Assembly: GCA_046761065.1 (NCBI GenBank)
Contig: JBHIFL010000094.1
Coordinates: 1-14,040, forward strand
Reading direction: 5' to 3'
Length of the DNA: 14,040 nucleotides
Origin: Candidatus Heimdallarchaeota archaeon
Lineage (GTDB): Archaea; Asgardarchaeota; Wukongarchaeia; Wukongarchaeales; JBHIFL01
Under the pieces are notes generated by a model that worked only from the letters and a program-made list of their open reading frames with translations, ran no database searches and was not told where the DNA came from. Positions 3,777-8,629 of this stretch are shown here, piece after piece. The position numbers were made by a program, and so were the translations under genes. The stretch's first letter is position 1. Each line of letters starts with the position of its first letter.

Positions 3777-3834
3777 GTCCTACGTGCTCTTCAGCCGCAG
3801 CGGTAAGCTGTCGGCTGCAAGAGCAATGTTGGGC
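3777..3834 (-). other. attC site (R' non-canonical GTAGGAC)
   Basis: Minus strand GCCCAAC-ATTGCTCTTGCAGCCGACAGC-TTACC-GCTGCGGCTGAAGAGCAC-GTAGGAC. R'' GCCCAAC is complementary to this cassette's start GTTGGGC at 4359-4353. Confidence 0.9.
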
Positions 3835-3846
3835 GAAATGTATAGG

Positions 3847-4077
3847 TTATTTTGCTACTTGTAGCGCTTCTTCCGCTTCGCGGGGTAATGAGACGAGAAC
3901 AAAGTAGGACTGAGGATAAAGATAATCTTCTCCGGATTCATCAACGACTCGGAGATATCCTTCCTTTTCTGCATCTTCATCCGGCAGTATCTGATAAATC
4001 TTGCGCTTTTCTAAATCCTCGCAGTCCTTATTCTCAATGCAAAGTGCAAATTTATGATTTTCCTTTGTTTTTGCCAT
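3847..4077 (-). CDS. Small acidic hypothetical protein, second gene of a two-gene cassette (possible antitoxin)
   Basis: 76 aa, starts 3 nt after the upstream stop with GGAG in front; motif LRVVDESGEDYLYP; ends just before attC. Confidence 0.8.
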   Translation of the reverse strand: MAKTKENHKFALCIENKDCEDLEKRKIYQILPDEDAEKEGYLRVVDESGEDYLYPQSYFVLVSLPREAEEALQVAK

Positions 4078-4080
4078 AAT

Positions 4081-4326
4081 TTACTCCAAAAACCGTTTGA
4101 TTTTCATTTTCTTTCTACCGATGCCGTGGGCTTCATACCAGTGCACTTCAGCTTTACGGATATTGCCGCTCTGAAGCCTAACCATAGCAAATCCTTTAAG
4201 TTTTCGCCACCGAGCAGAACCAAATTGCCTTTGAAGCCGCATTATATCACGAATCCTTCCACCGATGGCAATAGTTTCAACTTCCTCAATTTCCCTAATT
4301 ATCTCAAAATACATAGGATTTTTCAT
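4081..4326 (-). CDS. Small basic hypothetical protein, first gene of a two-gene cassette (possible toxin)
   Basis: 81 aa, Arg/Lys-rich, motifs WRKLKG and AEVHWYEAHGIG; begins ~30 nt after GTTGGGC (4359-4353). Confidence 0.8.
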   Translation of the reverse strand: MKNPMYFEIIREIEEVETIAIGGRIRDIMRLQRQFGSARWRKLKGFAMVRLQSGNIRKAEVHWYEAHGIGRKKMKIKRFLE

Positions 4327-4352
4327 CCTTATAATTTCAAATCATAGTTTAT

Positions 4353-4396
4353 GCCCAACTATTAATATACAGCATATTGTATATTAATAGTTAGGC
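4353..4396. other. Palindromic double-attI core (bidirectional recombination site)
   Basis: GCCCAAC-TATTAATATACA-GCATAT-TGTATATTAATA-GTTAGGC. 4367-4392 is identical to 8600-8625 (right attI) and the left arm is the exact reverse complement of the attI end. A cassette starts at the GTT on each strand. Confidence 0.85.
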
Positions 4397-4403
4397 ACCT
4401 AAG

Positions 4404-4432
4404 TTGCATCCAAGTAGGCAAAAGTGTATATT
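4404..4432 (+). promoter_or_regulatory. Sigma70-type promoter internal to the TA cassette
   Basis: TTGCAT-17 nt-TATATT, upstream of AAGGAG (4455-4460) and ATG 4469. TA cassettes typically carry their own promoter. Confidence 0.6.
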
Positions 4433-4468
4433 AGAGTGAGGTAAGATTTTTAAAAAGGAGTTTGGGTT

Positions 4469-4699
4469 ATGTCATCCAATGCAATTGCCACGTTGGTCAA
4501 AATGATGGAGTCTTTGCCTGAACCGGTGCAAGATCAAGTAATCCAGCATCTTCGAGAATATCTCTTGGACTTGCAAGATGAGTTGGAATGGAATAGACAG
4601 TTCAAGAAAACACAGAACCAACTAGTTGCTGCTGCAAGACGGGCCAAACGGGAAATCGCGAAGGGGCACGGGAAACCAATGGACTATGACAAATTATGA
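4469..4699 (+). CDS. Putative type II antitoxin
   Basis: 76 aa, AAGGAG RBS, ATGA overlap with the downstream RelE/ParE-like gene, typical ...KPMDYDKL tail. Confidence 0.75.
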   Translation: MSSNAIATLVKMMESLPEPVQDQVIQHLREYLLDLQDELEWNRQFKKTQNQLVAAARRAKREIAKGHGKPMDYDKL

Positions 4700-4962
4700 A
4701 ATCTGCCACACTACCATCTTTTTGGAAGGCATATGAAGCTCTCAGCAAAGAAATTAAACGAAGTGCCAGAAAAGCCTACCAATTATGGGCAAAGAATCCT
4801 TTTCATCCCTCACTCCATTTCAAATGTATCAACACCGAAGAAAACATTTGGTCTGTGAGAATCACGCGTGGTTACCGTGCTATTGGTATTCTTGAGGGAG
4901 ATACAGTTACGTGGTTTTGGATTGGAAGCCACGACAATTATGAGCGCTTTTTCTCGTCCTAG
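4696..4962 (+). CDS. RelE/ParE-superfamily toxin
   Basis: NPFHPSLHFK, WSVRITRGYRAIG and WFWIGSHDNYE motifs; 88 aa; followed by attC. Confidence 0.85.
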   Translation: MKSATLPSFWKAYEALSKEIKRSARKAYQLWAKNPFHPSLHFKCINTEENIWSVRITRGYRAIGILEGDTVTWFWIGSHDNYERFFSS

Positions 4963-4972
4963 AAATAAGGTG

Positions 4973-5034
4973 GCCTAACAACTCGCTGCAGCCGACGCCG
5001 CTGGAGGCGGCGCAACTGAGCTTTATTGTTAGAC
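4973..5034 (+). other. attC site of the TA cassette (plus polarity)
   Basis: GCCTAAC-AACTC-GCTGCAGCCGACGCCGC-TGGAG-GCGGCGCAACTGAGC-TTTATT-GTTAGAC, extra bases on the 5' arm. R'' is complementary to GTTAGGC at 4390-4396. Confidence 0.92.
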
Positions 5035-6279
5035 GGCCTTATTGCCATGTGCACCGCCATGCTCCGCGACGGCTTCACGTAAGACCCTTGCCTGTTCAGA
5101 GAGACCTTTCCGCACCCAATCCCTCCATTGAGGTGTACCGCCCGTTGGAAAACTACCGTCATCCAGAAGAAAGTCAGCCAGTTGAGCGATGAGGAGCAAT
5201 GTCCTGCCATTGTGGCGTGCGAGTAGATCAAGCTAAAAGTTGCTGGTCATTGGCGACGGGCCTTGTGGTGTTTCCGCTACATACCAAAGGAACCACTCCA
5301 GCGCCTCCCACACACTTGACGCCCATTCAAGGGCGTGCCCTTCGGCCCAGAGCTGAGTATCTAAATCTCCTAGCAGTCGGAAGGACGGAGTGTTCTGGAG
5401 ACTCGACAGCAACGATTCCTTATCTACGCCGTGCTCTGCAGCCTGTCGAGCGCATGACACCAGGCCCTCAAGCCATTCATCGGCCTGGTTCAAATCCACG
5501 GGCATGTTGTCTCGTATCGCCTGGAAATCGGGGTTAGGCGGAAATCTTATCTCCCACGAGATGGCCCGAAGATCACAATCGTCTGGCGGGAGCAAAAACA
5601 CTCCTCTTTGTTCGTAAATTCGCCGACTGAACGGAGGCGGGAGCAAAACCGTAAGCGCCGCGTATTTCCAGGCGACTACAGATGGTATCGCAAAAACGAC
5701 GGCATCATGCGTTCGCGCACTTCTAGAGGCGAAGTATATTGCAACAGCAGGATCAGCGGAGAAATCGAGTAGTTTTGAAGCTATTCCGTGGTGGCGACCA
5801 AGAGCTTCAAGTGCGAGACGCCCCGGGTGCACTAACGAAAACTTCCGGTCGCGGGTATGTTCCCAGGGCAAGATGTGGTCGAGTAACAAGACAAACAGAT
5901 CCATAACGTTGCGCTCGTGTTGTTGGTCGACACCTTCGCGGTCTATAGTCGCAACGATTGGCAAAGAGGAGTCGCTCTGACCTCGGTAGTAGCATCTTAC
6001 AGGCTGAGGTTTTGCGGTGGCTGGGTCTTTTGCTAGAAGGAAGTGCTCCAACTCAGTGTACAGGAAAATTCCCGCGTGCCATGGGCTTGGCGCATAGGCC
6101 AGCTTGTCCCCATCGTCGAACGTCACGTCTCGTACGACATTCTTGACCTCGCGTTCAAGGTCGGCAAGGAGTTCTTTGTCAGGCGGAGCGTCTGGGTCCA
6201 GGAACGCCACTATCGGGCCGAAGCGCGGCAACGCGTTGAGTCGGCTCCAGAGTGCCTTGGCCTCCGTAGTCGTTGTCAT
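5029..6279 (-). pseudogene. FRG-domain protein cassette gene with an in-frame TAG at 5233-5235
   Basis: YYRGQSDS..PI, RHHGIASKLLDFSADPAVAIYFAS and RIYEQRGVF are FRG motifs. The frame stays open for 67 codons after the TAG and ends at a TAA (5031-5029) inside GTCTAAC. The 348-aa product may still be expressed. Confidence 0.8.
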
Positions 6280-6304
6280 TCGCTTACCTATCGATCCAAG
6301 GGCC

Positions 6305-6370
6305 GTCTAACGCCTTGCGCGTAACCTGCAGGCGGCGAAGCCGACTGTCAGGTTCATGCGCCTGTTCGAC
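6305..6370 (-). other. attC site (minus polarity)
   Basis: Minus strand GTCGAAC-AGGCGCATGAACCTGACAG...CTGCAGGTTACGCGCAAGGC-GTTAGAC. R'' with flank (CAGTCGAAC) is complementary to the cassette start GTTCGACTG at 6881-6873. Confidence 0.92.
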
Positions 6371-6874: not shown

Positions 6875-7020
6875 GTCGAACTATTAATGTACAGCATGCT
6901 GTATTTGATACAAACCGCCCTCAGTAAACGTCATATATTAAGTGGTTTTATCAATTATCCCCGTGAAATTACAGTATTATCTTAATATTATCCATATTAG
7001 ATTGCAAGTCGTATATTCGA
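6875..7020 (-). repeat. attI-left / Pc region (copy 1 of inverted repeat)
   Basis: Canonical position upstream of and divergent from intI; ends ...ATTAATAG|TTCGAC at the first cassette; 126/142 identical by hand alignment to 8484-8625 in inverted orientation. Confidence 0.88.
6979..7007 (-). promoter_or_regulatory. Pc-like promoter for the left array
   Basis: TTGCAA-17 nt-TAAGAT pointing at the attI crossover; lies in the 47-bp block perfectly conserved between the repeats. Confidence 0.65.
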
Positions 7021-7051
7021 TGGCTTTAGTATCCAGCCTGGGAGCAATGGA

Positions 7052-8353
7052 TTGAATAATCAACGAAAAAACCTCGCCGAATTTGAAGATTTTATCAAGC
7101 GTTTCCGTCTAGTTCCCCCGAAAAAAACCCGATTTTATGTTTATTGGGTAGAGCGGTTTATTAAATATTATAAATTCAGGTCTTCCAAACCATTAAAACA
7201 AACCATTGCTGCTTACCTTGAGACTATGGAAACGGATTCACGTTTTGCCGAATGGCAAGTCAAACAGGCGGCGGATGCCATTCTGTTATATGCTGAAAAA
7301 TATCTCAAATCAGATAAAAGACCTCTTGCCCTTTCGATAAATTATCCAGTTGATTTGAAAAAAGATGTTTCGGACAAGATATTCAACAAGACAAGCTGGA
7401 AAGGAATCTTAGATAAATTGCATGAAAGTTTACGGCTTCGACATTATTCCCCCAGGACGGAAAAATCTTATCGCATTTGGATCAATAAATTCCGGAATTA
7501 CGTAAACGATCGCGATCCCCTATTGCTTGAGGGGAAGGAAGTAAAAGACTTCTTGACCCATATCGCTCTCCATGATCGAGTTTCGGCTTCCACACAAAAC
7601 CAGGCTTTTAATGCTCTATTGTATCTTTTCCGGAATATTTTACAGAAAGACTTGAGCAATCTGAAAGATACTATAAGGGCACGGCGGAGGAGAAAATTAC
7701 CGGTTGTTTTGACTCGAGAAGAGGTCCAGCAGCTGTTTTCCTTTCTCGAGAGTCCCTATATTCTTATGGCTCAACTGCTTTACGGAAGCGGTCTCCGCCT
7801 GCTTGAATGCATCCGCTTGAGAGTCAAGGATATCGATTTCGCCAATAATGTATTGATCATCCGGGCAGGAAAAGGCGAGAAAGATAGAACCACCATACTC
7901 GCGGATAAAATCAAGGAATCTCTGAAATCACATTTGCATAGAATTAAGAGACTTCACCGCGAAGATTTAGCGGAAAGATACAACGTCACAACGCTTCCAG
8001 ATGCTCTGGAGAAAAAATATCCGAATGCCAACAAAGAATGGGCCTGGCAATGGGTATTTCCCTCGAAAAGCCTAGTGCTCCATCCCAAGAATGGAAAGGT
8101 CTTGCGTCATCATATTCAACCAAGCACCCTTCAGAGAAAGATCAAGGAAGCCGTAAGAAAATCTGATATTTCCAAACCGGCAAGCTGTCACACGCTCCGG
8201 CACAGTTTCGCTACGCATCTTTTGGAAGCAGGGCACAATATCCGAACAATTCAGGAGCTCATGGGACATAAAAACGTGAACACCACAATGATATACACTC
8301 ATGTTGTTCGAAAGAGCTATTCAGACATTTCCAGTCCTTTGGACAAGCTGTAG
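7052..8353 (+). CDS. intI: Integron integrase, long form with N-terminal extension
   Basis: Tyrosine recombinase motifs YGSGLR, GKGEKDR, HTLRHSFATHLL, LMGH and TTMIYTHV, plus the integron-specific insert LPDALEKKYPNANKEWAWQWVFPS. TTG start after GGAG. Confidence 0.97.
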   Translation: MNNQRKNLAEFEDFIKRFRLVPPKKTRFYVYWVERFIKYYKFRSSKPLKQTIAAYLETMETDSRFAEWQVKQAADAILLYAEKYLKSDKRPLALSINYPVDLKKDVSDKIFNKTSWKGILDKLHESLRLRHYSPRTEKSYRIWINKFRNYVNDRDPLLLEGKEVKDFLTHIALHDRVSASTQNQAFNALLYLFRNILQKDLSNLKDTIRARRRRKLPVVLTREEVQQLFSFLESPYILMAQLLYGSGLRLLECIRLRVKDIDFANNVLIIRAGKGEKDRTTILADKIKESLKSHLHRIKRLHREDLAERYNVTTLPDALEKKYPNANKEWAWQWVFPSKSLVLHPKNGKVLRHHIQPSTLQRKIKEAVRKSDISKPASCHTLRHSFATHLLEAGHNIRTIQELMGHKNVNTTMIYTHVVRKSYSDISSPLDKL

Positions 8354-8483
8354 AGAAGGGATAGAACTTAACTCAAGAAAAACTGTTCCTATTAATTTCC
8401 CAGGCTATAGTCTTTTGCGATAAAATAAAAAAAGTGATTTCTTCTACAAATTCTATGGCAGGCGATGATGGATATTAAAGGAG

Positions 8484-8629
8484 TCGAATATACGACTTGC
8501 AATCTAATATGGATAATATTAAGATAATACGGCAATTATGCGGGGATATTCGATGAAACCATTTAATATACGACGTTAATTGAGGGCAGTTTGTATCAAA
8601 TACAGCATATTGTATATTAATAGTTGGGC
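8484..8629 (+). repeat. attI-right / Pc region (copy 2, downstream of intI)
   Basis: Inverted copy of 6879-7020. Similarity stops right after ...ATTAATAGTT, where a cassette begins (GTTGGGCGGCAT). Confidence 0.88.
8497..8525 (+). promoter_or_regulatory. Pc-like promoter for the right array
   Basis: TTGCAA-17 nt-TAAGAT, identical to the left copy. Confidence 0.65.

Follow-up and report, generated by a model that had tools for sequence, protein, structure and literature searches.

The site at positions 4353-4396 of the window (the whole stretch of 14,040 nucleotides that was analysed) is an attI-derived site and probably the collapsed form of a two-armed integron platform, the platform itself being the larger novelty. 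The palindrome at this site is probably what a second two-armed intI module left behind on collapsing, this module having been a paralogue of the intact one located 2.5 kb away. Integrons are usually described as one-way platforms consisting of one integrase, one attI and one array. In the two-armed family an attI lies on each side of intI, and the palindrome would represent the fate of such a platform after loss of the module, namely a mark of 36 bp with an array still leading away from it on either side.

The site is composed of a 36-bp palindrome and four cassette-side bases on each side, which complete two 7-bp cores of the attC type (RYYYAAC at 4353-4359 and GTTRRRY at 4390-4396). Positions 4357-4392 form a perfect inverted repeat, with 15 bp in each arm and 6 nt at the centre, and with the flanking 7-mers included the inverted repeat measures 20 nt at 95% (4352-4371 / 4378-4397). 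When the site was folded as single-stranded DNA, the same bulge-free hairpin was obtained from either strand, with energies of -12.3 and -13.7 kcal/mol and z scores of -7.3 and -7.5 for the two strands, and 0 of 200 shuffles matched the energy of this hairpin. Repeat analysis and the folding of both strands thus confirmed what the sequence-only reading had described as a perfect stem of 15 bp, closed by a 6-nt loop and free of attC-type bulges. The neighbouring attC sites at 3777-3834, 4973-5034 and 9303-9372 fold with bulged bases on one arm. The 36 bp can be divided into an outer 10 bp, a 16-bp core and a second outer 10 bp. The left outer 10 bp (4357-4366, plus strand) is identical to the family consensus of the attI-arm outer end, with the crossover at its AAC; the core lies at 4367-4382; and the right outer 10 bp (4383-4392, minus strand) together with the core is identical to positions 8600-8625 at 26 of 26 bases.

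The intact module occupies 6879-8625 and is composed of an attI-left arm (6879-7035, plus strand; outer 10 bp 6879-6888, core 6889-6904), intI (7052-8353, plus strand) and an attI-right arm (8469-8625, minus strand; core 8600-8615, outer 10 bp 8616-8625), with cassettes leaving both arms. The two arms are inverted repeats of 157 nt that are 87% complementary. The intI gene encodes a true integron integrase of 433 aa, as the open reading frame scored 441 bits against TIGR02249 (cut-off 265), with the alignment starting from residue 119, and it carries an N-terminal extension of about 115 aa which is conserved in the clade. IntI proteins of about 430 aa with such an N-terminal extension were found to be numerous.

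Fusion of 6879-6897 to 8609-8625, by which 1711 bp is taken out, gives 4357-4392 at 35 of 36 positions. The two pieces are joined at an 8-mer common to both attI arms (6890-6897 and 8601-8608), and the earlier claim that the palindrome equals the empty form of the intI module, which was based on this join, turned out to be exact on recomputation. The left half of the palindrome agrees with 6879-6896 at 17 of 18 positions and equals the family consensus, so that the two halves consist of attI-arm sequence at 26/26 and 25/26 bases. The centre is of the L type in the left half and of the R type in the right half, as in the arms of the neighbouring module, and among 52 sites a private two-base core variant was observed in only two, the window palindrome and the window's own attI-right core (8600-8615). 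This shared variant and the L-type and R-type centres indicate that a near paralogue of the present module gave rise to the palindrome and that it originated within this lineage; gene conversion between nearby repeats could be another source of the variant. Within the genome of 4.4 Mb, exact copies of the 15-nt half-site number four and are confined to this contig, two of them being the halves of the palindrome and the other two the attI ends. A half-site with one mismatch on contig C96 was discarded, as it lies in coding-like sequence, forms no palindrome and looks like a chance match.

The two-armed layout is not confined to the window. The contigs carrying the closest IntI proteins (75-81% identity) come from independent metagenomes, and three of them (L016, L017 and L018) are laid out in the same way, their arms measuring 150-163 nt, being 86-94% complementary and carrying the same end motif; the fourth contig with a close IntI (L019) ends just past intI. 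The layout was also found in G088:C47. From outside to inside, each arm consists of four variable cassette bases, AAC and the rest of the outer 10 bp, the 16-bp core and the inner arm. An alignment of 32 arms showed that conservation starts exactly at AAC and continues for about 150 nt. The consensus core is a perfect 16-bp palindrome, with inverted arms of about 13 bp on either side of a symmetric 6-bp centre, and since it is its own reverse complement, it is present as a direct repeat in two arms which are themselves inverted. Within the inner arm, two direct copies of a 10-nt motif were observed (near alignment positions 59-70 and 138-150), and the outer end contains part of the motif in inverted orientation. 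This arrangement recalls the R/L plus DR1/DR2 layout of attI1. The motif copies are candidate IntI-binding sites, perhaps for the extra N-terminal domain. The arms within one module were 0.80-0.91 identical in 7 of 9 modules in comparison to a between-module mean of 0.78, which suggests concerted evolution or repeated inversion.

On both sides of the palindrome a cassette leads outward. The left cassette (3783-4358, minus strand) contains two small ORFs (4081-4326 and 3847-4077) and the attC at 3777-3834, a bulged hairpin, while the right cassette (4391-5028, plus strand) contains an antitoxin-like ORF (4469-4699), a ParE-like toxin ORF (4696-4962) and the attC at 4973-5034. The start of the right cassette, i.e., the 6 bases after G 4390, has its exact complement in the R'' of its own attC (4973-4979), and the start of the left cassette at 4358 on the minus strand has its exact complement in its own R'' (3834-3828). 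Complete cassettes diverging from both ends, as stated in the sequence-only reading, were thus borne out by the complementarity of R'' and cassette start on both sides. Between the two cassette starts there is a difference of one base, which the respective R'' follows in each case, showing that these are two separate cassettes and not one sequence read twice. An operator of the neighbouring toxin-antitoxin genes was considered and rejected as an identity for the palindrome, since the same site heads unrelated cassettes in other genomes. Promoter scans around the palindrome and in the arms gave nothing better than shuffles, and the loss of both Pc proposed in the sequence-only reading is accordingly no more than putative.

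Some observations were made on the right side of this region. Positions 4973-5034 can be read as an attC in either direction, and this attC is shared tail-to-tail by two converging cassettes, which fits the arrays of two neighbouring platforms meeting head on. An 11-nt inverted repeat, found in the regions 4973-5038 and 6301-6311, brackets a segment with an FRG-domain gene (5233-6279, minus strand). A single inversion of the IntI type as the source of both the palindrome and the tail-to-tail attC was rejected by reasoning on the junction sequences, because crossovers at G|TT cannot join two intI-side sequences.

To find the 36-bp site in metagenome assemblies, a degenerate two-arm pattern was used. 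The same 36-bp site was found in MAGs labelled Anaerolineales (L024 = G002:C6) and Aminicenantales (L025 = G001:C44), the arms being identical and the centres differing by 1-2 bases. The AT-rich palindromes L020-L023, which also came from the two-arm scan, were set aside as unrelated, having other centres, lengths of 32, 37 and 47 bp and no attC-type context. When the outer 26 nt was searched in 151 relatives of the Aminicenantales MAG G001, 18 genomes matched in comparison to 0 for the reversed control, and this search added a well-kept palindrome in G112:C25 and decayed ones in G048:C15 and G079:C18. In five of the six palindromes a cassette with matching R'' is present on one side or both, and the window and G002:C6 have such cassettes on both sides. 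A search of relatives for the 36-mer between divergent cassettes had been put forward as a check on the initial reading, and it was successful, with both flanks present in G002:C6. Both crossover junctions are perfectly kept in four palindromes, and in all six sites the halves differ by 1-3 nt, as expected of two arms that are about 10-15% diverged. The well-kept fused form is rare, as a census of the 36-mer in the phylum of G001 found it in 1 of 401 genomes, which was G001 itself.

The relatives also contain pairs of arms at intermediate distances. The spacings observed were about 1713 bp (the full module, in G088:C47), 1146, 1126, 925, 492 and 385 bp; the shorter arm pairs are different internal deletions of intI, and half modules and solo arms are also present. 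The 36-bp form is the end of this deletion series. Most of the genomes with a palindrome show, in the assembled part, fragments of this IntI clade or none, and the general lack of an intact IntI of the clade in these genomes fits a relic. No orthologous pair, with the module in one relative and the palindrome at the same locus in another, was found.

Two further observations concern G112. Palindrome-like variants were observed in L071 (G112:C59, 2425-2470) and L068 (G112:C25, 3500-3540), one with a short additional stretch separating the core from the second outer end and the other with indels, and they may be a record of other deletion end points. Two-armed units with the same internal intI deletion were observed in L076 (G112:C1, 5144-6068) and L069 (G112:C36, 3979-5124). 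These two units are 82% identical across the deletion junction, their similarity ends at AAC/GTT and their flanks are unrelated, so that the pair reflects either an old duplication with cassette turnover or a copied non-autonomous unit.

The route by which a module would collapse to the palindrome can be outlined as follows. In the ancestral layout, intI would have been located between two inverted attI arms of about 157 nt, with cassettes inserted at the outer end of each, and the 16-bp palindromic core, 10 bp from the crossover in each arm, would have served as a direct repeat. A deletion from core to core would then have removed intI and both inner arms, which amounts to 1711 bp in the present module, and the product would be an outer 10 bp, one core and another outer 10 bp, still joined to the first cassette of each array. 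What remains would be two back-to-back attI crossover junctions forming the common head of two diverging arrays. The deletion may have arisen at the base of the arm hairpin, through slipped mispairing or through single-strand annealing, or else a recombinase may have acted at the core. A long inverted repeat is a known stimulus for the loss of sequence between short direct repeats close to its hairpin base, and the module shares both features, a long inverted repeat and a short direct repeat near its base. Symmetric spacers, such as those of lox or FRT variants, allow both inversion and deletion; the core has a symmetric centre as well. The join would have been made at the core in any event, since canonical G|TT crossovers cannot link two intI-side sequences. 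The direction from module to palindrome is favoured on comparison of the sequences, and the proposal in the sequence-only reading of a scar left by a second two-sided integron is the best-supported reading, given the conserved module, the deletion derivatives down to 385 bp and the recurring 36-bp form.

Several other explanations were weighed against the collapse of a second module. One that we regard as possible, though doubtful, is that the palindrome is a live bidirectional attI, kept for the neighbouring IntI to act on in trans, with cassettes moving in and out at either G|TT; the palindrome would then be a second, integrase-less two-way platform, whatever its origin. An intact intI of the cognate type is located nearby, and both crossover junctions and both cassette footprints are intact, but the footprints would come from the ancestral arms and give no sign of activity after the collapse. 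The perfect junctions in four palindromes may reflect selection for function and not a neutral scar; most of the other palindromes, however, are in genomes in which no intact IntI of the clade was found, and two of them are decaying. Attention must also be given to what the site has lost in comparison to a whole arm, as about 130 nt of each conserved arm is gone, including both 10-nt direct repeats (the candidate accessory binding sites). In published assays, attI remnants of 11 nt were active with IntI1 (PMC12901181). The folded site moreover has an attC-like geometry without bulges, and removal of the extrahelical bases equalises the use of the two strands (PMC5027507). Use of the fused site by the neighbouring IntI may be possible under the collapse as well, and the service in trans proposed in the sequence-only reading is plausible in view of the activity published for very short attI remnants. 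It is unlikely, in our view, that the 16-bp core is a second canonical recombination site in attI, that intI and the inner arms can be excised and re-inserted through it and that the palindrome is a live empty docking site which also takes cassettes both ways; cassettes would be accepted both ways in this case because the palindrome is without the unpaired features that normally set strand choice. The more specific form, in which the 1.7-kb intI unit leaves as a circle and enters again at outer-outer palindromes, making the palindrome a target or an excision product and not a product of decay, is quite unlikely. The core does have the layout of a canonical tyrosine-recombinase site with a symmetric centre, and IntI1 carries out full double-strand exchange between attI and attI in either orientation (PMC4792948). 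The inner-inner junction expected of the circle was not found in G000, G001 or G002, which weighs little, since these genomes are incomplete and a circle need not be assembled. The outer 10-bp ends are conserved like the inner arms, with conservation beginning at the cassette junction and not at the core, which argues against docking at the core, as does the private variant, which lies on the outer side of any crossover at or left of the core centre and would be left behind by a move to a new target. In terms of distribution, arms lie on at least 5 contigs in G001 and likewise in G112, as a moving unit would predict, but palindromes are far rarer than arms (about 6-8 in comparison to 40 or more). 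The occurrence of the same deleted derivative at two loci of G112 with unrelated flanks may indicate that the unit is mobile, in agreement with a docking site, although cassette turnover also explains unrelated flanks.

The remaining explanations carry little weight. In the very unlikely event of a fold-back by template switching at a single attI, the outer end would have been copied across the core dyad, and the palindromic core does permit such a strand switch. A copy of a single arm would be symmetric, however, while the halves differ in all six palindromes, the window halves carry the L-type and R-type centres of the neighbouring module, and the flanks past the 7-bp cores are unrelated and not inverted copies; template switching, named in the sequence-only reading as an alternative origin, is therefore disfavoured by the differing halves and by the flanks. 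There is hardly any likelihood that the palindrome is a symmetric attC of a flanking cassette, e.g., the toxin-antitoxin cassette, whose lack of strand bias led to the backward insertion of that cassette. The RYYYAAC and GTTRRRY cores and the R-5-L spacing are as in attC, and both the adjoining cassette in opposite orientation and the tail-to-tail attC at 4973-5034 would agree with it, but the halves are attI-arm sequence at all but one of their bases, the toxin-antitoxin cassette has an attC of its own at 4973-5034, with the plus-strand motif and the bulge side of the other attCs, the site measures 44 bp and is without unpaired features, and the arrays that begin at this site in other genomes are made up of unrelated cassettes. 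As for an assembly artefact, a chimeric join at repeated arm ends is conceivable for a contig from a short-read MAG with 8.2% estimated contamination, and yet its probability is close to negligible. Only 26 nt is common to the palindrome and the module, and across 4340-4410 none of the 31-mers and 6 of 50 21-mers occur elsewhere in the genome, so that no graph path through the arms yields the palindrome, there being no spanning 31-mer elsewhere in the genome; the same structure is also present in independent assemblies with other flanks.

With the collapse of a second module as the preferred reading, the palindrome can be placed among the known systems. Like attC and the engineered attC mutants without extrahelical bases (PMC5027507, PMC2727003), it has a 7-bp inverse core and core, a single-strand hairpin and about 5 nt from R-box to L-box, and for attC without extrahelical bases it was reported that both strands are used almost equally (PMC5027507). 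It differs from attC in that it contains neither extrahelical bases nor an unpaired central spacer, both strands being bulge-free, and in that a 6-nt loop replaces the variable terminal structure. It is also 44 bp long, attI-derived and located at the head of arrays and not at the 3' end of a cassette; both neighbouring ORFs begin next to the palindrome and read outward. Short attI remnants away from intI and inside arrays are known and recombinable, 11 nt being sufficient with IntI1, and like the attI1 simple site and truncated attI remnants (PMC12901181), the palindrome is the cassette-proximal end of a cognate attI, here found at the cassette junction. As in attI, the first cassette on both sides is joined at G|TT and its own R'' is complementary to its start. 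Unlike attI, the palindrome consists of two ends fused head to head, with a crossover at each end and cassettes leading both ways, and no intI adjoins it, the nearest one starting 2.66 kb away and having two arms of its own. For IntI1, an exchange of both strands between attI sites has been published, whichever way the sites are oriented (PMC4792948). The palindrome shares with the two-armed integron the arm family and the outward arrays on both sides, and differs from it as the end member of decay, in which everything between the cores including intI is gone; with just the outer 26 nt left of each arm, the site at 4353-4396 is, on its sequence, a derivative of the two-armed module and not a member of that class. 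The flanks are the complementary 4-nt cassette parts of two cores and not direct repeats, so they do not form the target-site duplication of an IS or MITE, and at every arm such 4-nt flanks vary with the neighbouring cassette. In the literature searched, no description of a palindromic or double attI was found, and the papers searched likewise contained no description of a two-armed integron with intI between inverted attI arms. Putative archaeal attI sites immediately downstream of intI have been reported (PMC9668308), and they may or may not belong to the two-armed family.

Clusters of attC without an integrase, known as CALINs (PMC4889954), are similar in that the palindromes in other genomes head arrays without an adjacent intI, and different in that CALINs are defined without an attI remnant, while here the former platform is recognisable and the window has an intact intI nearby. 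Collapse to a palindrome could be one way in which CALIN-type clusters arise, which would provide a concrete path by which complete integrons turn into cassette clusters without an integrase, and the sequence of the fused site provides a signature for spotting former platforms in genomes. As a natural and fully symmetric site, the palindrome can also serve as a test of how much attI recombination needs and of how far the choice of strand and orientation depends on unpaired features. Should recombination prove to take place at the core, intI would be mobile in its own right.

Contig C94 of the MAG is covered by the window in full. Among 200 other genomes of the window's phylum none contained the arm motif, in comparison to the 18 of 151 relatives of the Aminicenantales MAG G001, while the composition of C94 is not an outlier within its bin; the presence of C94 in this bin may be due to either mis-binning or recent transfer. 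At the left contig end, an IS256-family transposase gene was observed at 255-1625 on the minus strand (NF033543, 299 bits), adjoined by an ORF of 450 aa (1635-2987) that matched no family. Elsewhere in the same genome, a second integron integrase was observed (G000:C178:2696-3469), which is without the N-terminal extension and is cut by the contig end, along with small intI-like fragments on C159 (311-439) and C216 (194-343); all three were rejected as kin of the module, having no nucleotide similarity to it. Beside the related two-armed module of L017 (6028-10690), the cassettes encode SLATT, several TIR-domain proteins and QueC/TGT-like proteins, and these genes look like anti-phage defence.
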